Shown here: positions 4,066 to 26,809 of the stretch, piece after piece
Layout of the letters: every line of letters begins with the position of its first letter
How positions within the stretch are numbered: position 1 is the first letter of the stretch
Source: Candidatus Omnitrophota bacterium
GTDB taxonomy: Bacteria; Omnitrophota; Omnitrophia; Omnitrophales; JACROU01
Assembly: GCA_029261035.1 (NCBI GenBank)
Contig: JAJDCD010000025.1
Span: forward strand, 194,926-258,925
Length of the DNA stretch: 64,000 nt
Direction of reading: 5' to 3'
Translations under genes and position numbers: made by a program
Notes under the pieces: generated by a model
Databases searched by the model: none
Told to the model about the DNA's origin: nothing
Seen by the model: the letters and a program-made list of their open reading frames with translations, nothing else

Positions 4066-5739
4066 CTAATTGTCTGAAGCATCTTCTCCAGAAAATGAAT
4101 CTTTCTTCTCTTTACCCGCAGCAAATTCTCTCGGATTTGATTTGCCATATTCATTGAAAATTGCTTCAATTTCATCAAAGTCTAATTCTTGACGACTCAA
4201 AAGCTCTTTAGCGAATCGTTCAAAAAGGTCATTTTCTTTCTTCAATAACTCTTCAACCTCTTTGATACATTCTTGAATAATTCTATTTGACGCTTCATTC
4301 AACTTCAGTTTAAAATCATTCGACAATTGAGCTTCAGGAATTGAGGTGAAATCTCCATACAAACCATCCCCACCCATTCCAAGTCGCCACACCATATTAT
4401 GGGCAATCGCAGTTGCTTGTTTAAAATCACTAGATACCCCTGTCGTTGTCGTTTGAAATTTTAATTTTTCAGCAACATACCCACCCAGAGCCACTTTAAT
4501 ATTAGCAAGTAAAGTATGACTGTCATGACTGAAAAGTTCTTCCCTAGGAGTATGATGAACTACACCTAATGAAGATTTTCTGGGAATAATGGATGCTTTA
4601 AAAACATCGTCCGTAGGGTGAAGTAAATAAGTGGTTATCAAATGACCTGTTTCATGATAAGCCGTCATTGTCTTCTCTCTATCCGTCATCTTAATCTTTT
4701 GTTTAACACCTAATTCAACACGTTCAATTGCTTCGGAAATATCTTTAGCAGAAACAACATCTTTATGGTTTCTTGTTGCAATCAAAGCAGATTCCTTAAC
4801 AAGCATTTCGATGTCAGCAGGGCTTTTTCCCACAGCTTTACGAGCCAAGCGAGAAACATCAATGGACGCATCATGTTTCACTTTACCTAAATAATAACGA
4901 AACAATTTTTCACGTCCGTCTAAACTCGGCTTTGTGATATAAACCTTACGATCAAACCTTCCAGGTCTCAATAACGCTTCGTCCATAGAATCTTCAGGAG
5001 CATTCGTAGCTCCAATCACAATAACATCTTCCAATTTAGAACCAAGACCATCCATTTCTACCAGTAATTGGTTCTGTGTATTATTAGATTCTTGTCCACC
5101 GAATTGATTAAAAGTTCTTTTATGTCCCATTGCATCTAACTCGTCAATAAATACAATGCAACCACCAAAACCATAAGCAAGAGTACGCGCTCTCTTAAAT
5201 AGCTGACGTATTCGCGAAGAACCCACACCCACGAAAACTTCGTTAAATTCACTTGCTGCCATAGAAAGAAAAGGAAGGCCCGCTTCTGTAGCAATTGCTT
5301 TGGCTAAATAGGTTTTTCCACACCCAGGAGGTCCTAACATCAAAATACCTCTTAAGATTTTTCCCCCAATTTTTTTAAGGCGTGCATGATCCTTAATTAA
5401 TTGAACCACTTCCCATGCTTCTTCTTTAGCTTCATCAATTCCAACAACATCAGAAAAACGCACGCTCACATCTTTCCCTTTAATTTCTTTTTTATCTGTC
5501 TTTGTCATTCCTCCACGGAGAACGACTTGATACATAAATACGAAAACAGCAGCATGGACCATACCCAAAAGTAACGATAGTGGCATTTGTGCTAATGTAA
5601 TGTTTCTATAAAAACTCTCCAGAGAATACATACCCCAAATAGATAGGCCAATCAGAACCAAAATTCCTGCAGAAATTAAAATTTTAACTTTATGATTCAT
5701 CCAATACATTTTTGCTCTTCTTAAGTATCTTTTTTCCAT
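4066..5739 (-). CDS. FtsH-family ATP-dependent zinc metalloprotease paralog (AAA+ ATPase plus M41 peptidase) with a minimal periplasmic loop
   Basis: There are two N-terminal transmembrane helices separated by only about 20 residues. The protein has Walker A GPPGCGKT, Walker B IVFIDELDA, the second region of homology, and a zinc-binding HETGH (HExxH) motif. The start is preceded by AAGGAGA. At 557 aa it is shorter than canonical FtsH. Confidence 0.8.
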   Translation of the reverse strand: MEKRYLRRAKMYWMNHKVKILISAGILVLIGLSIWGMYSLESFYRNITLAQMPLSLLLGMVHAAVFVFMYQVVLRGGMTKTDKKEIKGKDVSVRFSDVVGIDEAKEEAWEVVQLIKDHARLKKIGGKILRGILMLGPPGCGKTYLAKAIATEAGLPFLSMAASEFNEVFVGVGSSRIRQLFKRARTLAYGFGGCIVFIDELDAMGHKRTFNQFGGQESNNTQNQLLVEMDGLGSKLEDVIVIGATNAPEDSMDEALLRPGRFDRKVYITKPSLDGREKLFRYYLGKVKHDASIDVSRLARKAVGKSPADIEMLVKESALIATRNHKDVVSAKDISEAIERVELGVKQKIKMTDREKTMTAYHETGHLITTYLLHPTDDVFKASIIPRKSSLGVVHHTPREELFSHDSHTLLANIKVALGGYVAEKLKFQTTTTGVSSDFKQATAIAHNMVWRLGMGGDGLYGDFTSIPEAQLSNDFKLKLNEASNRIIQECIKEVEELLKKENDLFERFAKELLSRQELDFDEIEAIFNEYGKSNPREFAAGKEKKDSFSGEDASDN

Positions 5740-6406: not shown

Positions 6407-9256
6407 TCAGCTCTTAGAAGTCACTTTCATACAAGATTTCTTAAGGTACTGAGCTGTATAAGACTCTGAAACTTTAGACAAGTTTTTTTGGGGCCCTGAA
6501 TACAGAACATCTCCACCTTCGTCACCACCCTCTGGACCAAGATCTATAATAAAATCTGCATTTCTTATAATTTCCATATTATGCTCAATAACTAAAAGAG
6601 AATTCCCATTTTGAAGTAATTCATCAAAAGCTTTAATGAGAAACTGAATATCATGGTAATGAAGTCCTGTCGTTGGCTCATCAAATATGTAAAGAACTTC
6701 AGACTTGCAACAATCACTCATCTCTAATGCAAGCTTCAACCGTTGAGCTTCACCTGCTGACAAAGTCGTTGCTGATTGCCCTAATCTTAAATAACCCAAC
6801 CCAACACTTTTCAGCACTCTCAATTTACGAACTAGTTTGTGTTGTTCTTTAAAAAAATCTAAAGCCTCTTCAACTGTTAAACTCAAAACCTCATGAATAT
6901 TCTTGCTTCTGTACTTAATCTCTAAAATGTGCGTTTGATATCGAGTTCCATTACACTGATCGCATTCCACATAGACATCTGCCATAAAGTGCATTTCAAC
7001 ACATATCTTTCCTTCTCCATGACAGCCTTCACAACGCCCACCTGCAACATTAAAAGAAAAAGCTCCAGGCCCCAAATGACGTCTCTGAGCATCTGGCGTT
7101 TTAGAAAATATTTGTCGTATATGATCAAATGCTTTCAAGTAAGTCACTGGATTTGAGCGAGGAGTTCGCCCAATGGGAGACTGGTCAATCAAAATAATAT
7201 CATTCACAAAATCAAAACCTGTCACTTCTTTACAAGCTCCAACATCTGCAACAGACTTCCCTTTAGCTCTAAGATAGTTTTTGTATAGAACATCATAAAC
7301 CAAAGTGCTTTTTCCTGACCCAGAAACACCCGACACAACACAAAATTGTTTAAGAGGAATCTCGACATCAATGTTTTTTAAATTATGTTCTGAAGCACCT
7401 TTAATATGAATACACCCAGCTTCCTCACCTGGCTTAGAAACATACCCTCTCTCAATCTTCTCTTTTCCATTAAGGTACTTGGCCGTCAAAGAATTAGGAT
7501 CTTTTAATAGTTTTTTCATCTCTCCACTAAATATAACTTCTCCTCCATACGCCCCAGCAAAAGGCCCCATATCGATCACTTTATCTGCCATTCGCATCAT
7601 CGAAGCATCATGTTCAACAACAACAACTGTATTTCCCAAACCTCTCAATTCTTGAAGTAGATTAATCAACAATTCATTATCTCGTTCATGCAACCCAATA
7701 CTAGGTTCGTCTAAAACATAAAGGGTATCCACAAGACTAGAACCTAAAGATTTTGCCAAGTTGATTCTTTGACTTTCTCCACCGGATAAATTTCGAGAAA
7801 GACGCCCTAAAGTTAAATACCCTAACCCAACATCATTTAAGAACTTAATCCTCTTGTTTAACTCCAATAAAATAGGCCCTGTAATTTTCTCTTCATGTTC
7901 CGTCAACTTCAATTTGTGAAAAAACTTTTTCAGATGAACCAAAGGGATCTGACATAATTCATCTACATTTTTTTTATTAATTGTCACATTTAAAACACGT
8001 TCCTTTAACCTACTTCCCTTACATTCAGGGCAAACAAAATATCCTCTATACTTACTTAAAAAAATTCGAACATGCATTTTGTATGTTTTCTTTTTTAAGT
8101 ATTCAAAAAATCCTTCCACACTATAAAAGTCATTTTCCTTATCCCCTTCGTGAAGAATAATATCTTTTTGTTTCTGACTTAATTCTTCAAATGGTTTGTC
8201 CCAAGAAATTTTTTTCTTTTTACAGTATTTTTCTAACTGTTCCGCTTCCCAAGCGGCACTCGGTTTGGTCCAAGGCTCAATAACACCTTCACCTAAAGAC
8301 TTTTTAGGGTTCGGTATAACCAAATTCCAATCAATGTCAATAATCCGGCCAAACCCCTGACAGGTTTCACAAGCTCCTAGCGGGCTATTAAAAGAAAACA
8401 TATTGGGGACGGGTTTTTGAAATTCTTGTGTATAAGGCGAACAATTAAATAACCTAGAATAGGTTTTACACTCCCACCCTAAAAAGTCTTTTTGTTCTGA
8501 TGGAAATTTTTCAGAAATATTTGGAGAGACATAAACTGAAAGAAATTCTTTACCAAAGCGATAAGCTGATTCCAAGGACTCAACAACTCGGACTTTTTTT
8601 GAATCTTCCAATAAAATACGATCTGCAATAATGGATAATTTATCTATACATTCATCTTCTAAAATCGATTTTTCCAAAGGAACGATTTGACTCTTCCATA
8701 ATACACGTGTAAAACCTTGTTGCGACATTTCCGACATAAGTTCATCTGGATATGTTCGAACTTTCTCTGAAAGAGGGACATCGAATACGATTATGGCCCA
8801 ATGGCCTTTGTATTGCTTAAACAAATCCTCCACAACATACTGAGGTTCCTCTTCCTGAACTAGTTGATGCGTTTCTGGGCAATAAGTCTTTCCAATACGA
8901 GAGAAAAGGATTCTTAAATAATCATTCACTTCTGTTTGAGTTCCAACGGTAGAACGAGCATTCGAAATTCGATTTTCTGCTTGAATAGCAATGGCAGGTA
9001 AAATTCCAGAAACAGAATCTAAATCAGGTTTTTCCATACGCTCAAGAAATTGGCGCGCATACGAGGACAAAGACTCAACATACCTTCTTTGTCCTTCCGC
9101 ATATAAAGTATCAAAGGCAAGCGAAGACTTTCCAGAACCACTCACTCCTGTAATAACCACTAATTGATTATGCGGAATGGATATATCCAGATTTTTTAAA
9201 TTATGAGTTTTCACTCCCTTAAGAGAAATCTCACCTTGAGACATGCGTATGACCAC
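6407..9256 (-). CDS. uvrA: Excinuclease ABC subunit A
   Basis: The 949-aa protein has two ABC ATPase modules (GVSGSGKSSLAFDTLYAEGQRRY and VSGVSGSGKSTLV), LSGGE signature motifs, and Cys-rich zinc modules (CETCQGFG; CEGCHGEGK). Confidence 0.95.
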   Translation of the reverse strand: MVIRMSQGEISLKGVKTHNLKNLDISIPHNQLVVITGVSGSGKSSLAFDTLYAEGQRRYVESLSSYARQFLERMEKPDLDSVSGILPAIAIQAENRISNARSTVGTQTEVNDYLRILFSRIGKTYCPETHQLVQEEEPQYVVEDLFKQYKGHWAIIVFDVPLSEKVRTYPDELMSEMSQQGFTRVLWKSQIVPLEKSILEDECIDKLSIIADRILLEDSKKVRVVESLESAYRFGKEFLSVYVSPNISEKFPSEQKDFLGWECKTYSRLFNCSPYTQEFQKPVPNMFSFNSPLGACETCQGFGRIIDIDWNLVIPNPKKSLGEGVIEPWTKPSAAWEAEQLEKYCKKKKISWDKPFEELSQKQKDIILHEGDKENDFYSVEGFFEYLKKKTYKMHVRIFLSKYRGYFVCPECKGSRLKERVLNVTINKKNVDELCQIPLVHLKKFFHKLKLTEHEEKITGPILLELNKRIKFLNDVGLGYLTLGRLSRNLSGGESQRINLAKSLGSSLVDTLYVLDEPSIGLHERDNELLINLLQELRGLGNTVVVVEHDASMMRMADKVIDMGPFAGAYGGEVIFSGEMKKLLKDPNSLTAKYLNGKEKIERGYVSKPGEEAGCIHIKGASEHNLKNIDVEIPLKQFCVVSGVSGSGKSTLVYDVLYKNYLRAKGKSVADVGACKEVTGFDFVNDIILIDQSPIGRTPRSNPVTYLKAFDHIRQIFSKTPDAQRRHLGPGAFSFNVAGGRCEGCHGEGKICVEMHFMADVYVECDQCNGTRYQTHILEIKYRSKNIHEVLSLTVEEALDFFKEQHKLVRKLRVLKSVGLGYLRLGQSATTLSAGEAQRLKLALEMSDCCKSEVLYIFDEPTTGLHYHDIQFLIKAFDELLQNGNSLLVIEHNMEIIRNADFIIDLGPEGGDEGGDVLYSGPQKNLSKVSESYTAQYLKKSCMKVTSKS

Positions 9257-17091: not shown

Positions 17092-17982
17092 TTACGCTTT
17101 GGCTTTTTTCTTTCGTTTGATCAGACCATGCTTTGTTAACATACTTTTCAACTTTGCCTTATTTGCTTTTTCCATCGTACATAATGGCAATCGAAACTCT
17201 TCTCTAACCATTCCCATTAAAGACAAAGCCGTCTTCACAGGGATTGGGTTCGTCTCTATAAATAAAGATTGAGCCAAGTCATAGATCTGATAATGAATCT
17301 GTTGAGCATCTTCAATATCACCATTCAAGTAAGAATGCACCAATCGAGACATTAAATTAGGAATAATATTAGCCACCACCGAGATCACCCCTCTAGCACC
17401 TACAGAAAGAAGAGGTAAGGTCAACGCATCATCCCCTGAAATAACGGTAATGTCAGAAGATTGTATAATTTCTGTCGCTTGATTCAAACTCCCACTAGCC
17501 TCTTTAATGGCAACTACATTAGGAATTTTAGCCAGTTGAGTCACTGTCTTAACATCCATAGAAACACCCGTACGGCTTGGCACATTATATAAAACAAAAG
17601 GAATATCTACTTTTTTAGCCAAAAACTCAAAATGTTTATACAAACCTATTTGAGTGGGCTTATTATAATAAGGAGTAACCACAAGCACACCATCTGCCTT
17701 AATCTTCTTAGCATGCTTCACAAGCAGCACTGCTTCAGCCGTGTTATTAGACCCCGCCCCACAAATAACAGGAACTTGTTTATTAACAACCTCTGTTACA
17801 TAACTCAGAACATCGCAATGCTCTTTATGAGACATAGTGGCAGCCTCACCCGTCGTACCACAAGGCACAATTACATCCGTTCCATTTTCTAAATGGAACT
17901 CCACTAACCTCTTCAAACCCGGAAAATCAATCTTTCCATTCTTAAGTGGTGTAACCAAAGCCACCATCGATCCCTGGAACAT
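17092..17982 (-). CDS. dapA: 4-hydroxy-tetrahydrodipicolinate synthase
   Basis: MVALVTPLKNGKIDF ... PCGTTGEAATMSHKEH ... VVAIKEASG contains the Schiff-base lysine context. A strong Shine-Dalgarno sequence AAAGGAGA precedes the ATG at 17980-17982. Confidence 0.9.
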   Translation of the reverse strand: MFQGSMVALVTPLKNGKIDFPGLKRLVEFHLENGTDVIVPCGTTGEAATMSHKEHCDVLSYVTEVVNKQVPVICGAGSNNTAEAVLLVKHAKKIKADGVLVVTPYYNKPTQIGLYKHFEFLAKKVDIPFVLYNVPSRTGVSMDVKTVTQLAKIPNVVAIKEASGSLNQATEIIQSSDITVISGDDALTLPLLSVGARGVISVVANIIPNLMSRLVHSYLNGDIEDAQQIHYQIYDLAQSLFIETNPIPVKTALSLMGMVREEFRLPLCTMEKANKAKLKSMLTKHGLIKRKKKAKA

Positions 17983-18148
17983 AAATGTCTCCTTTGTTTA
18001 TAGCTATCGGCCATCAGCTTTTAGCTTCTTCCGCCTGATGCGGATCTGCCAAGCTTTACGGCAGATAATAAATCCTAAACCAACTCTTATAAACAGCAAA
18101 CGCCTTTATCCCTAACACTAAATTAACAGTGCAAATAACAACCACGTA

Positions 18149-18220
18149 TCTCGTTATTAATACATAACGAGACAACATTATACCTAGGAAACAAGAGCCC
18201 TCGATGGCGCTCTTGTTTCC
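18149..18220 (-). promoter_or_regulatory. Structured region upstream of dapA: a 9-bp inverted repeat with a 6-nt loop, a TATAAT-like box, and a perfect 12-bp-stem hairpin
   Basis: There is an inverted repeat tctcgttat-taatac-ataacgaga at 18149-18172. Read on the minus strand, TATAAT is the reverse complement of 18177-18182. The hairpin ggaaacaagagc-N10-gctcttgtttcc spans 18187-18220 and is followed by the GTGAAGG motif. This region is followed by a leader of about 165 nt before dapA. Confidence 0.35.
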
Positions 18221-18264
18221 AACACCTTCACACACTCCCAAAGCGAATAATAGAAGAGGTTAGG

Positions 18265-18330
18265 TAGCGTTCCACGCCGCGAGTTGCGCAGCCCTAAAGG
18301 GCGAGCATGTCTGAGCGCCGGGGAACGCTA
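18265..18330 (-). repeat. REP-like structured 3'-UTR element, copy 1, 22 nt downstream of the dapF stop
   Basis: The sequence is tagcgttcc-aCGCCGCGAGTT-gcgcagccctaaagggcgagcat-GTCTGAGCGCCGg-ggaacgcta. It has a perfect 9-10 bp outer inverted repeat. Its flanks CGCCGCGAGTT and GTCTGAGCGCCGG are shared with copies 2 and 3. A central hairpin gccc-taaa-gggc is present. Confidence 0.6.
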
Positions 18331-18352
18331 CTCAACCTCCAACACATCTCAA

Positions 18353-19162
18353 CTAAGTAACAATCAACTCCCCACGAAAAGAGATATGAGCTTCTCCTTC
18401 CATAAAAACTTCTTTAACATCATCCCCTTCAAGCTCAAAACAAATCTTCAAAACTTCTCCACCCGTAGTAAATACATTCACGGGAGACTTTACTTTATTT
18501 TGAAGCGCTGAAATAAGCGCACTTGCCGTAGATCCAGTACCACAAGCAAACGTTTCAGACTCAACACCTCTCTCGTAAGTTCTAACAGAAATATCATGAG
18601 GGCCTGTTACTTCAACAAAATTAACATTCACACCTAAAGGACTAAACTTCTCGTGAAAACGAATCGCTCCACCAATTTCATTTACAGGAAAGTCTGAAAG
18701 ACTCTCTGGAAAATGAATCACATGAGGAACTCCCGTATTAATAAAGGATAATTCTTTTTTATTTCCATCGACATCCAGTTCAAATGCCGCTTTATAATCT
18801 ATAGGTTTCGTTAGCTGAACTTTAATTTTCTTTTCCGAAATCACCGCAGAAATAATACCTGCTCCTGTTTCAATTCTCATTTTATCTGGAAACTTTAAAA
18901 GCTCATGGGCAAACAAAGCAATACAACGAGAACCATTCCCACACATATCCGCTTCAGATCCATCCGCATTAATAATTCTCATTTTAAAATCTGCATCATC
19001 TGATTTCTCTACCAACAACACGCCATCCGCTCCAACACCGAACTGACGTACACACACATGTTGAGCAAATTCATTCACATCGGTTATAAAGCTCTCTCTG
19101 TGGTCAATGACAACAAAATCATTACCCGATGCTTGCATTTTATAAAAAGTAATTGTATTCAT
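18353..19162 (-). CDS. dapF: Diaminopimelate epimerase
   Basis: MNTITFYKMQASGNDFVVID and the active-site motif MCGNGSRC support the call. The ORF-track start at 19174 is a TTG. The ATG at 19160-19162 gives the canonical N-terminus. Confidence 0.9.
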   Translation of the reverse strand: MNTITFYKMQASGNDFVVIDHRESFITDVNEFAQHVCVRQFGVGADGVLLVEKSDDADFKMRIINADGSEADMCGNGSRCIALFAHELLKFPDKMRIETGAGIISAVISEKKIKVQLTKPIDYKAAFELDVDGNKKELSFINTGVPHVIHFPESLSDFPVNEIGGAIRFHEKFSPLGVNVNFVEVTGPHDISVRTYERGVESETFACGTGSTASALISALQNKVKSPVNVFTTGGEVLKICFELEGDDVKEVFMEGEAHISFRGELIVT

Positions 19163-19220
19163 AATCTTATCCAATCTGTAGCTATAAGCTCTCAGCTAAT
19201 ACCCCTTAGCTAAATCAACG

Positions 19221-19240
19221 ATCATCACACATGTGATGAT
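19221..19240. promoter_or_regulatory. 20-bp palindrome ATCATCACA-CA-TGTGATGAT upstream of dapF; candidate operator
   Basis: It has perfect 9-bp arms around a CA centre and lies 59-78 nt upstream of the dapF ATG. A near-identical palindrome occurs upstream of argF at 24376-24395, with the same flanks aacg...(a/g)ctg and the same upstream partner hairpin plus TTTTGTGAAGT. Confidence 0.5.
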
Positions 19241-19252
19241 GCTGTTACTTCA

Positions 19253-19285
19253 CAAAACAAACGTGCTCGACGTGCTTTTGTTTTG
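19253..19285 (-). terminator. Hairpin (9-bp stem caaaacaaa/tttgttttg, 15-nt loop) between the lysA 3'-UTR element and the dapF promoter region
   Basis: Read on the minus strand, the stem is followed by TTTTGTGAAGT. The positional equivalent upstream of argF (24410-24440) has a 13-bp stem. It may act as a terminator or attenuator between lysA and dapF. Confidence 0.35.
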
Positions 19286-19320
19286 ACCCTCTATCACCAC
19301 CCAAAAACAAATTCCAAAAA

Positions 19321-19403
19321 GGCCAGAGAAAATTCCCCGCCGCGAGTTCACAAAAGCGACTTCACTTTTGTGCTGTCTGAGCGCCGGAGAACTTTCTCTG
19401 GCC
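19321..19403 (-). repeat. REP-like structured 3'-UTR element, copy 2, 28 nt downstream of the lysA stop
   Basis: The sequence is ggccagagaaaattc-CCCGCCGCGAGTTCACAAAAGCGACTTCACTTTTGTGCTGTCTGAGCGCCGG-agaactttctctggcc. The 15-bp outer inverted repeat has one mismatch. The core is about 90% identical to copy 3. An internal hairpin cacaaaag/cttttgtg is present. Confidence 0.6.
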
Positions 19404-19430
19404 ACCCAACTCATATTTACCCCAACATCC

Positions 19431-20690
19431 TTACTTCAAAAAAGAAGGGATTTTTTCTCCTCTAACTAAATCTTCTATGGTTTCCCTCTTACGAATCACT
19501 TCAAACTGATTCCCCTTCACCATAACCTCACACACACGAGGTCGGGTATTGTAATTACTTGCCATGGTAAAACCATAAGCTCCAGCACTCATAATAGCCA
19601 GTAAATCTTTATCTTGAAAATCAGGCACTCTTCGATCTTTTGCAAAGAAATCTCCTGTTTCACAGATAGGGCCAACAATATCCGACTTTATAGATTTCAG
19701 TTTTATATTCTTCATCACAGGCTTAACATCGTGGTAAGCTTCATACAAACTAGGTCTTATCAAGTCGTTCATTGCCCCATCCACAATAATAAAATTTTTA
19801 GCCTCTGTCTTTTTTGTATAAAGAACCTGTGTAACAAAAGCCCCTGCATTCCCTGCAATAAAACGTCCTGGTTCAAAAATAACCTTAAATTTCTTACTTT
19901 TAATCAAAGGTAAAATTTTAGAGGCGTATTCAGCCGCAGTTTGAGGCTTCTCATTATCATAAGTAATTCCAAGCCCACCCCCTAGATTTAAAAATTTTAT
20001 TTTTATCCCCTGGTTCTCTAAGTTCGTTACAAAAATCATTACTTTTCTAAAAGCGCGGACAAAAGGTTCTCCCGTTGTAATTTGAGATCCAATATGAACA
20101 TGGATACCACACATATTGACATAAGGATATCGATTCTTATCTAAGAATAGGGCTCGTGCCGTATCCATATCAATCCCAAACTTACTTTCTTTTTTTCCTG
20201 TTGTAATATAGTCATGCGTATTTGCAGATACGTCTGGATTTACACGAATTGAAATACTTGCTTTCTTTTTTAATTTAGTTGCGACACGATTAATAGCAAC
20301 AACCTCAGCAGCGGACTCCACATTAAAAAGTAAAATCCCTTTCTGAATCGCAAATTTAATTTCTTCATCCGTCTTCCCAACTCCCGCATAAACTATCTTA
20401 TTTGGCTTCACCCCTGCTTTTAATGCTCTGTACAGCTCTCCACCAGAAACAATATCAAGACCAGACCCTTTTTTAACTAACGCTGTAAGCACAGCTATAT
20501 TCGAGTTTGCTTTTGTCGAATAACAAATTAAAGGCTTAATGGATTTAAATGCTTTAGCCAACTCTGTGTAAGAGTCTGTAAAAGACTTATAACTATAAAC
20601 ATAAAAAGGAGTGCCTACTTTTTTTGCTATATCTTTAATAGCAACAGACTCACAATATAAATCATTTTTCTTATAATCAAAATTACGCAC
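19431..20690 (-). CDS. lysA: Diaminopimelate decarboxylase
   Basis: It carries fold-III PLP decarboxylase motifs (CYSTKANSN, GGGLGI, EPGRFIAGNAG, CETGD). It lies 24 nt downstream of argH on the same strand. Confidence 0.85.
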   Translation of the reverse strand: MRNFDYKKNDLYCESVAIKDIAKKVGTPFYVYSYKSFTDSYTELAKAFKSIKPLICYSTKANSNIAVLTALVKKGSGLDIVSGGELYRALKAGVKPNKIVYAGVGKTDEEIKFAIQKGILLFNVESAAEVVAINRVATKLKKKASISIRVNPDVSANTHDYITTGKKESKFGIDMDTARALFLDKNRYPYVNMCGIHVHIGSQITTGEPFVRAFRKVMIFVTNLENQGIKIKFLNLGGGLGITYDNEKPQTAAEYASKILPLIKSKKFKVIFEPGRFIAGNAGAFVTQVLYTKKTEAKNFIIVDGAMNDLIRPSLYEAYHDVKPVMKNIKLKSIKSDIVGPICETGDFFAKDRRVPDFQDKDLLAIMSAGAYGFTMASNYNTRPRVCEVMVKGNQFEVIRKRETIEDLVRGEKIPSFLK

Positions 20691-20714
20691 TTGTTCTTAC
20701 CTTTCTCAAAAAAT

Positions 20715-22115
20715 CTATTTTAATTTATTCTTCCACTTAACTAATTGCTTCTTAACACTAGAAGGAGAAGTACTTCCATGCGTTTTCTTTTTCGTGATAG
20801 AAACCGTTGGATTATAAATTTTATACACACTTTTATCTACTTTACTACACAGCTTCTGATAAACATCCAGTGAAAGTTGGTCCAATTCAAAACCCTCTGA
20901 GATTGCATATTGAACAATCTCCCCAGAAATTCGATGAGCATCAGAAAAAGACAACCCTTTACCCACTAAATAATCCAGCAAATCAGTTGCATACAAAAAA
21001 CTATCCTCGGAACAGATCTGACAATTCAAATGGTTGACTTGAGTTGTTTTAATGGCTCCTTGTAAAACTTCCAGAGTTGCAAACGCCAAATGAAGCGCTG
21101 GAAACAAATCTTCCTTATCCTCTTGAAGATCTCGGTTATAACACAAAGGCAAACCTTTTTGATTCATCAACGCAGACACCAAATGGCCCACAGCTTTACC
21201 GCTTCGCCCTCGAGTCAATTCAAATAAATCAGGGTTCTTTTTTTGCGGCATCAAACTGGAACCCGTAGCATAAGCATCGTCCAAAGTAATAAAATCAAAT
21301 TCGGTTGAATTCCACAAAATCATATCTTCGGATAATCGAGAAAGATGAATATACATTTGCGAAACCCCAGACAACACTTCAATCACATAGTCTCGATCTG
21401 CGGTCGCATCAATGCTATTGTCTGAAACTTTTGAAAAACCTAATAACTTCTTCAAATTATCTCGAGACAAAGAGTAAGTCGCACCACCTAAAGCTCCACT
21501 CCCTAAAGGCAGAACATCGATTCGCTTCAAAGCATCCTGAAAACGTTCCTTATCTCGCTCAAGCATTTCAACATAGGCTAAAATCGCATGAGACATAGAA
21601 ACAACCTGCGCTCGTTGCAAGTGAGTATAACCGGGTATCGTTACCTTTTGATTCTTCTGTGCAAATTGCACAAGCACTTTTTGAAAGTGAGTCACAGACT
21701 TAATCAGCTCCGGTATCACCTTTTTCAAATAGAGTCGCAATGCTGTTGTCACTTGATCATTCCGACTTCGACCTGTTCGAAGCTTCTTGGCTACAGCCCC
21801 TGCTGATTTTTCCAACTCAACCTGAATCAAAGAATGCACATCTTCATGTTCGTAACACAAATCTAAAAACTCTTTCGGCGTTTTATCGATTTCATAATAC
21901 TTCATAAACCGTTTTTTGACAGAGGCTAGGCCTTTGAGCAATTTAGTCTTCTCTGCAGATTTCAAAATCTTAGCTTGGGCCAACACTTTTACCCACGCTT
22001 CATTCAGTTGAATATCTGCTTCAAAAAGCTCAAAATCGGTTGCTAAAGAATAAGAGAAAGCTTTTGCTTCTTCAGCTAATTCTGATTTAAATCTTCCGCC
22101 CCACATTTTTTTCAT
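20715..22115 (-). CDS. argH: Argininosuccinate lyase
   Basis: MKKMWGGRFKSELAEE ... the fumarase/aspartase-family signature GSSLMPQKKNPD. The start at 22113-22115 overlaps the argG 3' end by 29 nt. The ORF-track start at 22163 is an N-terminal over-extension. Confidence 0.9.
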   Translation of the reverse strand: MKKMWGGRFKSELAEEAKAFSYSLATDFELFEADIQLNEAWVKVLAQAKILKSAEKTKLLKGLASVKKRFMKYYEIDKTPKEFLDLCYEHEDVHSLIQVELEKSAGAVAKKLRTGRSRNDQVTTALRLYLKKVIPELIKSVTHFQKVLVQFAQKNQKVTIPGYTHLQRAQVVSMSHAILAYVEMLERDKERFQDALKRIDVLPLGSGALGGATYSLSRDNLKKLLGFSKVSDNSIDATADRDYVIEVLSGVSQMYIHLSRLSEDMILWNSTEFDFITLDDAYATGSSLMPQKKNPDLFELTRGRSGKAVGHLVSALMNQKGLPLCYNRDLQEDKEDLFPALHLAFATLEVLQGAIKTTQVNHLNCQICSEDSFLYATDLLDYLVGKGLSFSDAHRISGEIVQYAISEGFELDQLSLDVYQKLCSKVDKSVYKIYNPTVSITKKKTHGSTSPSSVKKQLVKWKNKLK

Positions 22116-23277
22116 AAGGAAGTCCCCACAATTTAATAAAACCTTCTGCTGATTTATGATCAAACATATCTCCTTCAGAATATGTCGCTAACGCTTCAGA
22201 ATACAAAGCATAAGGAGATTTGCGTCCTGCAATAATCACATGTCCTTGATCTAACTTTAACTTCACAATTCCCGTCACTCGATCTTGGTGCTTTGAAACA
22301 AATGCATCAAAAGCTTCCTTCAAAGGAGTAAACCAAAAACCATCATAAACTAAGTCCGCATACTTCTCGGAAATAAGCTTTTTATAATGGAGGTGCGCTC
22401 GGTCAAATACCAACGCTTCTAACTCTTCATGAGCTGTCATTAATACCGTTCCTGCCGGAGATTCATAAATCTCTCGACTTTTGATCCCCACCACTCGGTT
22501 TTCAATTAAATCGAGCCGACCCACACCATACTTCCCCGCTAAGTCGTTTAGCTTTTCAATCATGGCAACAAGAGGCATCTTCTTGCCATTTAAAGAAACC
22601 GGAATGCCTTTCTTAAATTCCAAAGTCACAGTAGTAGATTTTTTAGGAACCTCAGACAAAGCTCGAGTCATCACGTAAGCATCTTTAGGAGGCTCTACCC
22701 AAGGATCTTCTAGAACACCTGCTTCAATCGCAATACCCCAAATATTTTTATCAATCGAATAAATACTTTTTTTTGTAATATCAATTGGTATTTTATTTTG
22801 CTTTGCATAATCAATCTCTTCTTCACGTGTTTTGAATTCCCACTCCCGTAAAGGAGCAATGATTTTCAATTTAGAATCCAAGCTTCGAATTCCCACTTCA
22901 AGCCGAACCTGGTCATTCCCTTTTCCAGTACAACCATGAGCTACATATTTTGCTTTTTCTTTTTGCGCAATCTGAACCAAATGCTTAGAAATCAAAGGTC
23001 GGCCTAAAGAAGTCGCTAACAAATACTTCCCTTCATACTTAGCATGTGCCTGTAATGCAGGAAGAATAAAATCTTCAGCAAATTCCTTCTTAAGATCTTT
23101 AATATAAACTTTTGAAGCCCCTGATGCTTTTGCCTTTTTTTCTAATGCTTTTTTATCAGGCACTTCCCCTATAAATGCAGAAAAGCAAATAACCTCCACA
23201 TTATATTTATCTTTTAACCACTTGATTGCACATGAAGTATCTAATCCACCTGAGTAAGCTAAAATTACTTTATCCAT
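22087..23277 (-). CDS. argG: Argininosuccinate synthase
   Basis: MDKVILAYSGGLDTS (PP-loop) together with the overall ArgG sequence. Confidence 0.95.
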   Translation of the reverse strand: MDKVILAYSGGLDTSCAIKWLKDKYNVEVICFSAFIGEVPDKKALEKKAKASGASKVYIKDLKKEFAEDFILPALQAHAKYEGKYLLATSLGRPLISKHLVQIAQKEKAKYVAHGCTGKGNDQVRLEVGIRSLDSKLKIIAPLREWEFKTREEEIDYAKQNKIPIDITKKSIYSIDKNIWGIAIEAGVLEDPWVEPPKDAYVMTRALSEVPKKSTTVTLEFKKGIPVSLNGKKMPLVAMIEKLNDLAGKYGVGRLDLIENRVVGIKSREIYESPAGTVLMTAHEELEALVFDRAHLHYKKLISEKYADLVYDGFWFTPLKEAFDAFVSKHQDRVTGIVKLKLDQGHVIIAGRKSPYALYSEALATYSEGDMFDHKSAEGFIKLWGLPYEKNVGRKI

Positions 23278-23302
23278 AACTCTTCCTTTCTCAATTAGCG
23301 GG

Positions 23303-23420
23303 TAGCGTTTAGCGTAGAGCGGATAGGTTCCTTAATCAAAAGATTCTCTTACCAAACCACCCTCTCCTAAGTTCAAGAAATCTAAAAGCTTTTGGCAAAG
23401 GATCTATACGCTAAACGCTA
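23303..23420. repeat. Long-range perfect 14-bp inverted repeat tagcgtttagcgta / tacgctaaacgcta flanking about 90 bp in the argG-argF intergenic region, with reiterated TAGCG and CGCTA pentamers
   Basis: The left arm is 23303-23316 and the right arm is 23407-23420. The right side continues cgcta-tg-cgcta-ta-cgcta. The same tagcg/cgcta units form the outer stem of REP-like copy 1. Confidence 0.5.
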
Positions 23421-23431
23421 TGCGCTATACG

Positions 23432-24346
23432 CTATTTCTTCAACAACCACAAAAGAATCGCTTTTTCTGCATGTAATCGATTCTCTGCTTGATCAAAAAC
23501 AATCGATTTGCTACTTTCCATAATCTCATCCGTTATTTCTTCATCCCGATGAGCCGGCAAACAATGCATAATAAAAGGAGGCTTTTTTGCTTTAGAGAGT
23601 AACTTCTTATTTAGTTGAAACCCTTTAAACTCCGAAAGCTTTTTCTTCTTCAGTTTTTCCTCACCCATACTCACCCAAACATCGGTATAAACAAAGTCTG
23701 CAAATTTAATAGCGCCTTCTGGAGTCGTTTTCTGCTGAATCAAAGCCCCCGATTTTTTAGCTAAAGCCATAATTTCTTTTAAATCCTTTGGATTTACTTG
23801 ATGCTTTTTTGGGCAAACAAAATGAAAATGGCCGCCAATTTTAGCAAATAAATAAAGCAACGACGTTAGTACATTATTTCCGTCACCCACATAAGCAACA
23901 ATAGCCTGTTTCTTTTTACTCTTTTCTATCACCGTTAAATAGTCTGCCAAAGCCTGACACGGATGAGACCAATCACTTAAACCATTAATCACAGGCACTT
24001 TCGAATAGTCCGAAAAATCCTCAATCGTTTTATGCTTAAATGTTCGAAGCACAATAGCATCCCAATATCGAGATAAAACTCGCGCCTCATCATGGAGAGC
24101 TTCTCGAGAACCCAGCTTAATATCGTGAGGACCTAAATACTGAGCTTCTCCACCCATCTGAGTCATAGCAACCTGAAAAGACACACGCGTCCGAGTCGAA
24201 GGCTTTTCAAAAACCAACCCCAAAGACTTTCCTTCTAAATGTCTAAGGTATTTCTTAGGGTGCTTCTTAACCTCAACCGCAATCCCAATAATATCCAAAA
24301 TATCCTTCTTAGATAAATCCTTAATCCCCAACAAATGCTTCATCAA
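23432..24346 (-). CDS. argF: Ornithine carbamoyltransferase
   Basis: It has STRTRVSFQ, HPCQALAD, DVWVSMGEE and HCLPAHR motifs. The ribosome-binding site GAGGGG precedes the ATG. Confidence 0.9.
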   Translation of the reverse strand: MMKHLLGIKDLSKKDILDIIGIAVEVKKHPKKYLRHLEGKSLGLVFEKPSTRTRVSFQVAMTQMGGEAQYLGPHDIKLGSREALHDEARVLSRYWDAIVLRTFKHKTIEDFSDYSKVPVINGLSDWSHPCQALADYLTVIEKSKKKQAIVAYVGDGNNVLTSLLYLFAKIGGHFHFVCPKKHQVNPKDLKEIMALAKKSGALIQQKTTPEGAIKFADFVYTDVWVSMGEEKLKKKKLSEFKGFQLNKKLLSKAKKPPFIMHCLPAHRDEEITDEIMESSKSIVFDQAENRLHAEKAILLWLLKK

Positions 24347-24375
24347 ATCCCCTCTTCTCTACAGCTTCTATAACG

Positions 24376-24395
24376 ATCGTCACACATGTGACGAT
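24376..24395. promoter_or_regulatory. 20-bp palindrome ATCGTCACA-CA-TGTGACGAT upstream of argF; candidate operator overlapping a TATAGA -10-like box
   Basis: It lies 30-49 nt upstream of the argF ATG. The minus-strand reading is ...gtgacgat-cg-TTATAGAag...gagggg-ATG. It is paralogous to the dapF upstream palindrome at 19221-19240. Confidence 0.5.
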
Positions 24396-24409
24396 ACTGC
24401 CAACTTCAC

Positions 24410-24440
24410 AAAAGAAAGTTACTCGATGTAACTTTCTTTT
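24410..24440 (-). terminator. Perfect 13-bp-stem hairpin (aaaagaaagttac-tcgat-gtaactttctttt) between the argD 3'-UTR element and the argF promoter region
   Basis: On the minus strand the stem is followed by ttttgTGAAGTtgg. It is a terminator-like structure with a T-rich 3' arm. Confidence 0.4.
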
Positions 24441-24478
24441 GCCCCTCCACACACACCACCAAGCTTAGTAACTTAAAG

Positions 24479-24562
24479 GCCAGGGATCGTTCCCCGCCGC
24501 GAGTTCACAAAAATAGCTTCACAATTTTTGTGCTGTCTGAGCGCCGGGGAACGATCCCTGGT
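24479..24562 (-). repeat. REP-like structured 3'-UTR element, copy 3, 21 nt downstream of the argD stop
   Basis: The sequence is ggccagggatcgttcc-CCGCCGCGAGTTCACAAAAATAGCTTCACAATTTTTGTGCTGTCTGAGCGCCGG-ggaacgatccctggtc. It has a perfect 14-bp outer inverted repeat. The outer-stem sequences differ between the three copies, but pairing is preserved. Confidence 0.6.
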
Positions 24563-24582
24563 CTCCAACCCACTCCTAAACC

Positions 24583-25803
24583 CTAAAACGCATGACACCA
24601 CTTACTAAGCGCATAATCCAACATATTCATAGCTGTATCAACCTGCTTCTTCGTCACCGTCATCGCAGGTAAAATCCTCAAAATATTTCCTTGAGTCACA
24701 TTAATAATCAACCCCTGCTTGAGACACTCATCCACAACAGGCTTTCCCGTAATAGACAATTCCATCCCTAACATCAAACCACGTCCGCGAATTTCTTTAA
24801 CAACAGGATAACGTCGTTGCAATTTTTCTAAATGAAGTTTTAAATAATCTCCCAACTCCTGAGTCTTTTCTAACAAACTCTCTTTCTTAATGGCCTCAAA
24901 TACGGCCAAGGAAGCTCTGGAAACCAAAGGATTTCCTCCATAAGTAGAACCATGAGATCCTGGAGTTAACACATTTTTCACTTTATTCGAAACAAGCGTA
25001 GCTCCAATAGGGACTCCCCCCCCTAACGATTTCGCCATGGTCATAATATCAGGCTTAACTTTCAAATGTTGAAAAGCAAACATCTTCCCTGTACGCCCCA
25101 TTCCTGTTTGAACCTCATCAAAAATTAATAAAATCTTTTTGTCATTACATAGCTTTCGCAAGTTTTTAACAAACTCCCCTGTAGCCACATGAATACCACC
25201 CTCACCTTGAATTGGTTCTAATAAAATTGCAGCTGTTTTAGAAGTAACTAACTTCTTCACAGAATCAAAGTCGTTAAAAGTTGCATATTTAAACCCCTGC
25301 ACTAATGGTTTAAAACCATCATGCATCACATCTTGTCCTGATGCGGACATCGCAGCATAAGAACGCCCATGAAAAGATTGCTTAAACGTAATGATTTCAG
25401 ATCGTTTTTTCTCAGCCCCAAATTTCTTAGCAAACTTAATAGCAACCTCAACCGCTTCAGCCCCCGAATTACTAAAAAACAATTTACCAGGAAAACTATG
25501 CTCCACAATCGTTTTAGCCAGTCGAGCTTGAGTCAGGTTTAAAAAGTTATTAGGAATATGAATCACCTTTTTGGATTGTTCTTTAATTGCAGAAACAACC
25601 GCAGGATGACAATGACCCAAACCACTAACAGCCCAGCCAGGGAAAAAGTCTAAATACTTCTTTCCCTCCAAGTCCCAAACCCAAGACCCCTTACCCTTCA
25701 CCAAGCAAACAGGTAACTGTGTATACGTTGGCAAAATATAATCAGAGTACATTTTTTGAACATCTTTTGTTTTCAATTTAAATTCCTCAATTAGAGTAGT
25801 CAT
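24583..25803 (-). CDS. argD: Acetylornithine aminotransferase (class III PLP aminotransferase)
   Basis: The typical ArgD N-terminus YILPTYTQLPVCLVKGKGSWVWD and the class-III aminotransferase fold support the call. ArgD enzymes are known to also accept N-succinyl-diaminopimelate. Confidence 0.85.
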   Translation of the reverse strand: MTTLIEEFKLKTKDVQKMYSDYILPTYTQLPVCLVKGKGSWVWDLEGKKYLDFFPGWAVSGLGHCHPAVVSAIKEQSKKVIHIPNNFLNLTQARLAKTIVEHSFPGKLFFSNSGAEAVEVAIKFAKKFGAEKKRSEIITFKQSFHGRSYAAMSASGQDVMHDGFKPLVQGFKYATFNDFDSVKKLVTSKTAAILLEPIQGEGGIHVATGEFVKNLRKLCNDKKILLIFDEVQTGMGRTGKMFAFQHLKVKPDIMTMAKSLGGGVPIGATLVSNKVKNVLTPGSHGSTYGGNPLVSRASLAVFEAIKKESLLEKTQELGDYLKLHLEKLQRRYPVVKEIRGRGLMLGMELSITGKPVVDECLKQGLIINVTQGNILRILPAMTVTKKQVDTAMNMLDYALSKWCHAF

Positions 25804-26662: not shown

Positions 26663-26809
26663 TACCTTCTCCTACCATATTTAATTCAAAAATTTAAAGT
26701 AAAAAGTCTAAACCATAATTAAAAATCCAAAATTTCTTCTTATATCAAAAGATGTTCTTTTTAAATTTTGATTTATGGTTTTTAGCCTTTACTTTTAAAT
26801 TTTTACTTT

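Follow-up and report, generated by a model that had tools for sequence, protein, structure and literature searches.

Based on exact core matches, folding, covariance models and comparisons to homologous loci, we propose that three hairpin-forming elements in an amino-acid biosynthesis operon probably belong to a new, dispersed and multicopy family of long palindromes similar to REP, BIME and Rickettsia palindromic elements (RPE), which would originate at the DNA level and affect mRNA as 3' hairpins. The elements, found in a 64-kb window (the whole stretch of DNA analysed), are real copies of a repeat that occurs across phyla and has an invariant, off-centre core.

Three copies within one operon

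In the window, the pattern CGCCGCGAGTT-N(10-40)-GTCTGAGCGCCGG matches exactly three times and never in 100 shuffles, and CGCCGCGAGTT or GTCTGAGCGCCGG alone recovers the same three places only, even with one to two mismatches allowed. The covariance model, run with filters off, assigns these copies 59-71 bits and detects no credible fourth copy in the 64 kb. All three lie in a single operon (Table 1). As the minus strand is the coding strand for all flanking genes, the elements are located downstream of the argD, lysA and dapF stop codons; the exact core matches and the gene strands thereby bear out the initial annotation, which had placed three paralogous elements there. Its measures require correction, as the stem bases lie ~13, 27 and 18 nt from the stop codons in the three copies, and not 21-28 nt, and the outer repeats comprise 23-25 nt at 84-92% complementarity instead of 9-15 bp.

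Table 1 Elements, hairpin modules and flanking genes in the window (parts in plus-strand positions).
Feature	Position	Strand	Parts	Evidence
Element copy 3 (argD/argF)	24472..24569	-	outer arms 24477-24500 and 24541-24564; core 24495-24547	exact core match; inverted repeat of 24 nt, 92% complementary; fold -62 kcal/mol, z = -9.8; covariance model 71.4 bits
Element copy 2 (lysA/dapF)	19315..19409	-	arms 19321-19343 and 19381-19403; core 19338-19387	exact core match; inverted repeat; fold; covariance model 64.9 bits
Element copy 1 (dapF/dapA)	18252..18343	-	arms 18256-18280 and 18315-18339; core 18275-18321	core match; inverted repeat; -49 kcal/mol; covariance model 59 bits
Module 2, argD-argF region	24403..24447	-	A/U-rich 14-bp hairpin, loop AUCGA	perfect 14-nt inverted repeat
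Module 2, lysA-dapF region	19247..19291	-		homologous to 24403-24447; direct repeat, 78% identity
Module 3, argD-argF region	24372..24399	-	palindrome GATCGTCACATGTGTGACGATC	30 nt upstream of argF start
Module 3, lysA-dapF region	19217..19244	-	palindrome ATCATCACATGTGTGATGAT	47 nt upstream of dapF start
Diverged modules 2 and 3, dapF-dapA region	18147..18220	-	GGAAACAAGAGC..GCTCTTGTTTCC at 18187-18220; TGTCTCGTTAT..ATAACGAGATA at 18147-18174	alignment; sequence read directly
argD	24583-25803	-		
argF	23432-24346	-		
lysA	19431-20690	-		
dapF	18353-19174	-		
dapA	17092-17982	-		

On the minus, i.e. sense, strand each window copy is a hairpin of ~95 nt, with an outer stem of 19-24 bp that is unlike between copies, an asymmetric, off-centre core that is identical in all three (CCGGCGCUCAGACA / AACUCGCGGCGG), and an inner hairpin beyond the core that is variable in each copy. 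The core consists of a 5-bp helix, in which one position is a G.G mismatch, together with a UCA bulge, a GA:UC step and a 3x3 loop. What had been described as mirror-image core flanks is merely this helix (GGCGC/GCGGC, one G.G mismatch), followed by UC on each strand. The inner hairpin of copy 1 is of the UGCUCG...CUGCGC type, resembling the GUCCUCG...CUGCGG type of several phyla. The three copies fold with -49 to -62 kcal/mol (z = -5.8 to -9.8); copy 2 is more stable on the sense strand (-55.1 vs -41.6 kcal/mol for the plus strand) due to two G.U pairs.

A constant core in variable stems across phyla

The exact 22-nt core with its spacer occurs at at least 102 loci, mostly in Atopobiaceae, and also in Omnitrophota, the phylum of the window, and Eisenbacteria; among the matches listed, single loci each derive from Planctomycetota, Longimicrobiales, Gammaproteobacteria and Fibrobacterota. 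In total the core is found in at least seven bacterial phyla. Several genomes are multicopy, with at least 8-10 copies in single genomes, and in Omnitrophota Bin_214 the element forms one module of longer mosaic repeats. The family unit measures 86-105 nt and combines an outer stem of any sequence, paired over ~20-23 bp, with the 5-bp core helix and the inner hairpin; in 100 of 107 copies, the core is enclosed by at least 8 bp of outer stem free of gaps. The most constant nucleotides are those of the bulge and the loop (GC-UCA-RA-CAG / RAAC-U), and in L031 a C-G pair of the core helix is swapped to G-C. Conservation is lowest at the unit ends, the reverse of what transposase-recognised elements show, which counts against reading the element as an inserted repeat.

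The Rfam comparison suggested earlier was run and no known family matches the elements: with Rfam 15, no family reaches the gathering threshold in the window and nothing falls on the elements at E up to 10, no match covers the elements in 15 loci of seven phyla, and a dimer yields only far sub-threshold miRNA-hairpin matches. No existing name for the repeat family was found, and the core has no matches in viral contigs or plasmids. Searches of 8-kb loci turned up neither a transposase nor a RAYT close to any of the copies, tblastn with approximate IS200 TnpA and E. coli RayT queries gave no match with E <0.7, and transposase families are absent from 116 neighbouring ORFs; the genes adjoining the copies are unrelated housekeeping genes. 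The initial view of the window copies as REP-like members of a real family, without coding role, is supported.

Family copies are typically located ~10 nt past stop codons. Among the matches listed, the core follows the stop of a long ORF by 22-45 nt (mode 31-33) in ~50 cases, while in ~13 such a stop is on the other side, and singletons adjoining stop codons are in sense orientation at ~4:1. Approximately one third of the copies is antisense to both neighbours, and each dimer includes one antisense copy. Adjacent copies are invariably arranged '+ -', i.e. tail-to-tail (21 of 21 pairs), and the partner is usually the second core subtype; in L032, L034, L049, L067, L083 and L094, the CCCCGTGCTCAAACAG...AACTGCGCGCGGG subtype accompanies the canonical core. 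Among 17 dimers with determinable flanks, 16 are found between co-directional genes, one between convergent genes and none between divergent genes.

Insertion and turnover

In four Atopobiaceae (L010, L043, L064 and L080) gltB, encoding glutamate synthase, carries a translated in-frame copy, adding ~28 residues to an interdomain linker that are missing in B. subtilis GltA and in homologues of 60-76% identity. The empty site of L185 reads DP|GD, while L184 has a palindrome without the core at the same position. Here, the base of the left arm is ancestral coding sequence and the base of the right arm is an inverted copy of it, and paired changes maintain the stem even within the coding sequence. 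Deletions of the palindrome centre are observed in L184 and at inner hairpin tips. In relatives of the window genome (L104, L187, L188 and L189) synteny is kept and the element is absent; the lysA/dapF/dapA junctions overlap or span 27-30 nt in L187-L189, and the three intergenic regions of L104 measure 72-129 nt. Where seven genomes share an orthologous site, its mid-stem differs blockwise on both arms between identical flanks, a pattern that fits co-conversion or cassette exchange rather than stepwise compensatory substitution.

Origin of the stem covariation

Paired changes on both sides occur at 24 of 30 counted pairs, i.e. the 24 outer-stem pairs, in 87 family members, with 87% of the cells paired vs 61% when shuffled, so that the claim of outer stems with differing sequence and preserved pairing holds across the family. 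The conclusion previously drawn from it, namely that covariation proves selection on RNA structure and excludes an insertion, is not borne out, and the observations point in the opposite direction: the operon of relatives is without the element, the in-frame insertion in gltB is missing in close homologues, and the seven-genome site differs by blocks on both arms. As both arms differ as blocks with identical flanks, selection on RNA structure is not required to explain the 'covarying stems'. Moreover, outside one special position G.U wobbles are as frequent as A.C (82 vs 75), indicating no strand preference across the family. A practical warning follows, as covariation alone is no evidence for a functional RNA in multicopy palindromes.

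A dedicated structured RNA appears unlikely to us, whether as an element for processing or stability in a 3'-UTR or between cistrons, as a motif bound by a protein or as a ribozyme not yet described; in this reading the invariant internal loop would be functional, the stems under RNA-folding selection and the multicopy spread secondary. The equal frequency of G.U and A.C, the blockwise stem differences, the copies antisense to both neighbours (one in every dimer), the unrelated housekeeping neighbours, the orthologous junctions of relatives without the element, the translation of one copy and the lack of Rfam matches in the window and other phyla all speak against it, despite several features that it would explain well: a core invariant across phyla within freely variable helices, the constancy of the bulge and loop nucleotides, the base-pair swap in L031, the predominantly sense orientation of stop-adjoining copies, the G.U pairs of copy 2 on the sense strand only and the stem-preserving changes in gltB. 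To our knowledge, REP families are mostly lineage-specific and an identical core across distant phyla is unusual; such a core might instead point to a functional RNA whose partner is conserved, and it may represent a small RNA motif of a new kind that cleaves itself or binds a protein.

We regard as very improbable that the elements serve as transcription terminators or insulators, where a GC-rich hairpin or symmetric dimer would stop or pause RNA polymerase and the core would hitch-hike or bind a factor. The intrinsic (Rho-independent) class was rejected since no U-run directly follows the hairpin: a U-tract is absent in high-GC and low-GC genomes alike, the mean T count over 12 nt past the stem being 2.6 and 3.4, respectively, and not above the A count. 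A terminator consensus scan does not call the full window elements, and within them it marks only a short hairpin of 6 bp, which lies in copy 2's right arm and precedes a T-run. Location ~10 nt past stops, between co-directional or convergent but never divergent genes, very stable hairpins and dimers whose symmetry would permit bidirectional action are as expected for terminators; however, the window copies reside inside an operon that is compact in relatives, one copy lies within an essential-looking coding sequence, and termination needs no invariant asymmetric core.

Single-strand recombinases read extrahelical bases, as in attC and IS200/IS605 ends. The conserved off-centre bulge resembles such bases, but a DNA-level binding or recombination site with host function (for a nucleoid protein, gyrase, site-specific recombinase or HUH nuclease), for which RNA folding would be irrelevant, is equally improbable overall: the wobble pairs without strand asymmetry, the strictly symmetric dimers and the palindrome-centre deletions in L184 and at inner hairpin tips are set against the lack of a linked recombinase or nuclease gene in 8-kb loci, of attC consensus boxes and of viral-contig or plasmid matches, and absence from close relatives is not what a host function would lead one to expect.

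Proposed mechanism

For the REP-like palindrome family we favour, we propose the following course. A composite repeat, consisting of the element and two smaller hairpin modules, would have been inserted at three junctions of a presumably otherwise compact operon (argB-argD-argF-argG-argH-lysA-dapF-dapA-dapB), and was likely duplicated between at least two of them. The invariant core may be the recognition site of a candidate trans-acting enzyme operating on folded single-stranded DNA or RNA. Complementary stems would be kept and diversified at the DNA level, by other copies co-converting both arms and by the flank being copied in inverted orientation. Once transcribed, the hairpin (-49 to -62 kcal/mol, 13-27 nt past the stop) would present a barrier to 3' exonucleases or a substrate for a double-strand RNase, possibly uncoupling the stabilities of the upstream and downstream cistrons, by analogy to E. 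coli REPs.

It is a rather doubtful extension that the core (GC-UCA-RA-CAG / RAAC-U with the mismatched helix) is the module of a widespread candidate ssDNA/RNA-processing enzyme, making the family a new class of mobile element. Such an element may have no conserved ends and exchange a ~70-nt central cassette, and the sequence at the gltB site suggests that it builds its own stem base by inverted copying of the target flank.

REP-type repeats are common, yet for most of them neither the mode of movement nor the reason for their persistence is settled. The present family is an exceptionally clean starting point, as the same 22-nt asymmetric core occurs in gut Actinobacteria, uncultured Omnitrophota and Eisenbacteria, is set in freely varying stems, and has filled, empty and centre-deleted alleles at the same site. 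With it, phylogenetic profiling could be used to look for the cognate enzyme, DNA-level conversion could be tested directly against RNA-level selection as the process that keeps the stems of palindromic repeats, and it could be tested how hairpins of this kind reshape cistron expression in an amino-acid biosynthesis operon.

Relation to known elements

Di Nocera et al. 2013 (PMC3733652) describe the same genomic habits for REPs in general: REP, REPIN and BIME, including the GTAG and CGTC superfamilies, are likewise multicopy and extragenic, lie at most ~20 nt past the upstream ORF where the neighbouring genes are co-directional or convergent, form mosaics with other modules, have occasional in-frame intragenic copies and reach distant phyla. 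REPs comprise 20-40 nt with 5-13 bp stems, as compared to ~95 nt with a 25-30 bp helix here. REPIN and BIME are also inverted dimers of fixed orientation, often of two subtypes, as are the 21 tail-to-tail pairs of this family. In contrast, the GTAG or CGTC end tag of REPs is absent here, with at most 0.17 bit of information in the 10 nt adjoining the stem base at each end, GTAG in 6 and CGTC in 8 of 105 upstream flanks; frequent upstream TAG is due to the stop codon only, TAG representing 60% of stops in those genomes. Furthermore, stem sequence defines a REP family, whereas here the stems are hypervariable and the internal asymmetric loop is conserved. A single-copy RAYT (Y1 HUH) gene flanked by the repeats would be expected of REPs and REPINs; no RAYT was found in the 8-kb loci. 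We know of no transposase for CGTC REPs. REP elements and their dimers are reportedly treated by Bertels and Rainey 2011.

A MITE was rejected, as the termini are the most variable part and no target-site duplication was detected, direct repeats of 3-5 nt flanking at most 2 of 107 copies. RPEs are similar by behaviour, i.e. palindromic, in-frame in ORFs and translated like the gltB copy; they are conserved over their full length and are not known outside Rickettsia and relatives, and the element here is mostly extragenic. The attC and IS200/IS605 subterminal hairpins, folded single-strand recombination sites, are also imperfect hairpins that directly follow an ORF; conserved bases, extrahelical or bulged, adjoin a terminal structure that varies, and the asymmetry encodes strand or orientation. 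However, they have no counterpart to the outer 20-bp variable stem, and no integrase, cassette array or transposase is nearby in the 8-kb loci here. Integron attC boxes are RYYYAAC / GTTRRRY; attC was rejected, since the sole GTT of the element is in GAGTTC/GAGTTG, followed by C or G and no RRR. Phage T7 and E. coli RNase III hairpins and the malE-malF REP stabiliser are likewise long intercistronic hairpins with an internal loop in polycistronic operons, a functional analogy only, for the mode that would be expected of the transcribed window copies; RNase III substrates are not known to show cross-phylum sequence conservation, unlike the element core.

Further hairpin modules

The repeat unit as initially reported was too small: the element is followed by two more hairpin modules in the lysA-dapF and argD-argF regions, which align over ~215 nt. 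The two copies of module 3 form a direct repeat with 89% identity, and exact TCACACATGTGA is present only at these two sites. In the terminator scan, the module 3 copy upstream of dapF is terminator-like on both strands, and a further terminator-like match is located at 18174-18147 in the dapF-dapA region.

Anatomy of the repeat unit

The hairpin elements of the arg-lys-dap operon (Table) belong to a family of dispersed palindromic repeats whose genomic habits are those known from REPs. The core termini quoted in the initial annotation occur exactly three times in the window, with no occurrence expected by chance. A covariance model built from 87 family members scores the three copies, which lie 3' of dapF, lysA and argD (copies 1, 2 and 3), at 59-71 bits, and with filters off it detects no further credible copy in the 64 kb. 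The window contains no tRNA or tmRNA.

Folded on the sense strand, each unit has an outer stem of 19-24 bp, different in sequence in each window copy, which encloses the helix GGCGC/GCGGC, interrupted by a single G.G mismatch. Further in lie a bulge of three bases (UCA), the pairs GA:UC, an internal loop of 3x3 nt (CAG/AAC in copies 2 and 3, CAU/AAC in copy 1) and, innermost, a variable inner hairpin. The outer inverted repeats, first put at 9-15 bp, are in fact 23-25 nt long with 84-92% complementarity, while the "mirror-image" core flanks described at the same time are present and correspond to the mismatched helix GGCGC/GCGGC plus UC on each strand. Fold energies are -49, -55 and -62 kcal/mol (z -5.8 to -9.8), and copy 2 folds better on the sense strand by 13.5 kcal/mol because of two G.U pairs.

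The repetition itself is confirmed, and it extends further than first described. Two more modules come after the element in the lysA-dapF and argD-argF regions, first an A/U-rich hairpin (loop UCGAG/AUCGA) and then a palindrome, (G)ATC(A/G)TCACATGTGTGA(T/C)GAT(C), and as a result of these shared modules the two regions align over ~215 nt at 78-89% identity. Diverged counterparts of both extra modules are present in the dapF-dapA region.

Positions of the operon genes, repeat elements and further features in the window and in comparison loci
Sequence	Feature	Position	Strand
Window	argC, argJ, argB		minus
Window	argJ-argB junction, inverted repeat	26683-26808	
Window	argD	24583-25803	minus
Window	Core, copy 3	24495-24547	+ coordinates
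Window	argF	23432-24346	minus
Window	argF-argG junction, inverted repeat	23296-23427	
Window	argG, argH		minus
Window	lysA	19431-20690	minus
Window	Core, copy 2	19338-19387	+ coordinates
Window	dapF	18353-19174	minus
Window	Core, copy 1	18275-18321	+ coordinates
Window	dapA	17092-17982	minus
Window	dapB		minus
L104	Different repeat, same three junctions	1796-1873, 6872-7006, 7808-7937	
L080	In-frame gltB copy	2584-2680	
L184	Core-less palindrome at gltB site	2245-2287	
L100	Dimer	4385-4615	

Other junctions of the same operon are filled as well. An unrelated inverted repeat, TAGCGGGTAGCGTTTAGCGTAGAG / CTATACGCTAAACGCTATGCGCTA, occupies the argF-argG junction (arms of 24 nt, 88% complementary, 84 nt between them), and the A/T-rich inverted repeat at the argJ-argB junction is the longest in the 64 kb (arms of 50 nt, 74% complementary, 26 nt between them). 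The arg-lys-dap junctions hold most of the window's long local inverted repeats.

Occupancy of the operon in relatives

The gene order of the operon is kept in four relatives (L104, L187, L188 and L189), none of which carries the element. Here lysA and dapF overlap in L187 and L189, and the dapF-dapA gap measures 27-30 nt in L187 and L188. Since these relatives are compact and lack the element, the intergenic regions of the window, 236-370 nt long, represent lineage-specific additions. In L104, whose DapF is 75% identical, the three corresponding intergenic regions (72, 129 and 124 nt) hold a different repeat. Insertion boundaries could not be derived from comparison of the window with L104, as their intergenic sequences differ too strongly and another repeat is present in L104.

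In L104, the closest relative, the repeat consists of GC-rich arms, GCGGAATG(T/C)GAATTGCGCA ... TGCGCAATTCGCATTCCGC, flanking an A/T-rich hairpin, and argD-argF of L189 contains yet another repeat, GTGCACCG/CGGTGCAC. The junctions of this operon seem to act as a sink for palindromic repeats. A 1,609-nt short-read contig with an identical lysA (L001, Logan) stops 68 nt past the lysA stop, inside copy 2, as expected if the repeat breaks assemblies; this hints at more copies in that genome.

Spread and variation of the family

Scanning one genome per species with the pattern GGCGCTCAGACA-N(12-42)-AACTCGCGGC yielded at least 102 loci; our calculation puts the matches expected by chance in 596 Gb at a handful. 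Among the matches listed, Atopobiaceae (Olsenella, Thermophilibacter) form the majority, Omnitrophota and Eisenbacteria contribute several loci each, Planctomycetota, Longimicrobiales and Fibrobacterota one apiece, and Gammaproteobacteria two, one of them (L079) almost without an outer stem. Individual genomes hold at least 8-10 copies. The window itself belongs to Omnitrophota, and its DapF has its nearest named homologues in Candidatus Omnitrophica/Omnitrophota.

An outer stem of 8 bp or more, free of gaps, adjoins the core in 100 of 107 copies among the matches listed, and in most of these 107 it spans 19-30 bp. In a set of 87 non-redundant units, 30 pairs were counted; the 24 of the outer stem vary on both sides, and the six of the core helix show no variation. 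Paired cells amount to 87% in these 87 units, compared to 61% after shuffling and 41-44% with the partner slid. The three stem pairs next to the core are nearly fixed (YCC-core-GGR), in 27 of 108 copies the fourth pair outwards is A.C (on either arm), stem conservation declines over ~10 pairs, and pairing fades beyond ~22 pairs. At the fourth position the pair is otherwise G-C or C-G, and no other stem position has an A.C excess. In diverged copies the most constant parts are GC-UCA-RA-CAG and, on the opposite strand, RAAC-U; these copies also include a second core subtype, CCCCGTGCTCAAACAG...GAACTGCGCGCGGG, and a C-G to G-C swap within the core helix.

Genomic position

Gene calls in GC-rich loci were based on codon-position GC. 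In ~50 cases the core is preceded on its own strand by the end of a long ORF, at a distance of 22-45 nt (mode 31-33) that places the stop ~10 nt before the stem base. Equally near a stop codon, ~13 copies have the opposite orientation, and a third group, 134-177 nt from the stop, consists of copies that come second in a pair. Adjacent copies are arranged tail-to-tail in all 21 pairs. The flanking genes could be determined for 17 of these dimers and are co-directional in 16, convergent in one and divergent in none. As such a dimer is symmetric, a sense orientation of its first copy is a matter of geometry and is uninformative on transcription. Neighbours are ordinary housekeeping genes, and no recurrent transposase was seen among them. 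Family copies have no T-run 3' of the stem, no target-site duplication and no conserved tag at either unit end.

An in-frame gltB copy and replacement of the stem

Four Atopobiaceae (L080, L010, L043 and L064) carry an in-frame copy inside the gene for the large subunit of glutamate synthase (gltB), where it encodes ...DP[VKVRRSDSFAAQGAAAELAADLDGVGRS]GD... in an interdomain linker. The insert is absent from B. subtilis GltA and from homologues of 60-76% identity, and in the empty site of L185 DP is directly followed by GD. Its 84 nt comprise GTCAAGGTCC, then the core with its inner hairpin (49 nt), GGACCTTGAC and GGGGTCGGGCGCTCC. Compared to an outgroup at 80% identity, the base of the left arm (GCG CCC GAC CCC) is ancestral coding sequence and that of the right arm an inverted copy of it, in this single case. 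Between species, changes in the gltB copy come in pairs that keep the stem and alter the amino acids encoded by both arms.

At the same site, L184, at 90% identity, carries a perfect palindrome of 15 bp that lacks the core, CCTGACAAAGGTGCC-A-GGCACCTTTGTCAGG, and is best read as a deletion of the centre. The site is frameshifted, either through pseudogene formation or an assembly error, and the called protein is back in frame ~40 codons on.

At an orthologous 3' site in seven Atopobiaceae, the gene's last 50 nt, the core, the base of the stem and the flank 3' of it are identical, while the mid-stem reads AGGCGATGAGG, CGAAAGGCGAGG or TGGGAACAAGG with the other arm changed complementarily. So many paired differences within otherwise near-identical sequences indicate that both arms were replaced together as a block, the product that a conversion tract from the shared core would give. 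In Omnitrophota Bin_214, recent copies are built as modules into longer repeats of mosaic structure, in which the 3' module is one of two alternatives.

Interpretation and alternatives

In PMC3733652, REPs are described as lying near ORF 3' ends, forming inverted dimers (often hetero-dimers), having in-frame intragenic copies and occurring in distant phyla, and the element family is alike in 3'-end location, inverted dimers, in-frame copies and presence in distant phyla. It differs from the tagged REP superfamilies in having a unit 2-3 times longer, in lacking a GTAG or CGTC tag and in conserving an internal asymmetric loop instead of the stem, and is placed outside them.

Alternatively, the elements could have an RNA role, in agreement with the remarkable constancy of the core, the mostly sense orientation of singletons beside stops and the preference of copy 2 for the sense strand. 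As proof of selection on RNA structure, the covariation invoked initially fails in a multicopy palindrome; family-wide, G.U and A.C are equally frequent outside the fourth pair (82 versus 75). The functional strand can likewise not be read from wobble pairs, as an apparent excess of A.C over G.U derives from the fourth pair alone.

For the repeat family, we propose that the core is read by a putative trans-acting factor, and that stem complementarity may be kept by co-conversion and fold-back copying, the latter modelled on one site. In the window, the transcribed hairpins would be putative 3' barriers or double-strand RNase substrates between cistrons.

Of the known families suggested at the outset for comparison, REPs agree in habits, while an Rfam match, a GTAG/CGTC tag and MITE ends were not found. 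Rfam 15 gave no match in the window at gathering thresholds, none on the elements at E up to 10, none on family members from seven phyla and, on a dimer, miRNA-hairpin matches alone, far below threshold. A riboswitch or leader for the downstream gene is rejected, as in other genomes that gene is forward in 27 cases and reverse in 34, with unrelated functions. An intrinsic terminator is rejected for the absence of a U-run, and a MITE for its unconserved ends and the absence of a target-site duplication. TAG or GTAG as part of the element, or recoding, is also dismissed: TAG makes up 65% of stops beside elements versus 60% genome-wide in those loci, its presence upstream reflecting the commonest stop codon of those genomes, and the stem base has no tag. 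By eye, the core lacks the nucleotides that a K-turn, loop E, bulge-helix-bulge or hammerhead would require. No linked transposase was found by tblastn of 8-kb flanks with Y1 query sequences, or by Pfam among 116 neighbours. No copy was found in viral contigs, in plasmids or in E. coli (the best plasmid match, in Rhizobium gallicum, is a partial chance match of 14 bits within GC-rich sequence), and literature searches by sequence string and by organism returned nothing relevant.

In the high-GC loci (L002-L103, mostly Atopobiaceae), more long ORFs end in TAG (156 of 262) than in any other stop, which is unusual for GC-rich bacteria. The L100 dimer folds as three abutting hairpins, i.e. unit, 7-bp spacer hairpin and unit, with zero unpaired nucleotides between them (-152 kcal/mol, z = -9.8). 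Directly 3' of the element, seven loci (L030, L056, L059, L061, L065, L066 and L074) share a conserved flank, CCGCCGCGAGTCGTCTC, whose reverse complement is ACTCGCGGCGG and which begins as an antisense copy does; it probably remains as a stump from a dimer partner that was lost, and could pair with the 3' strand of the core.
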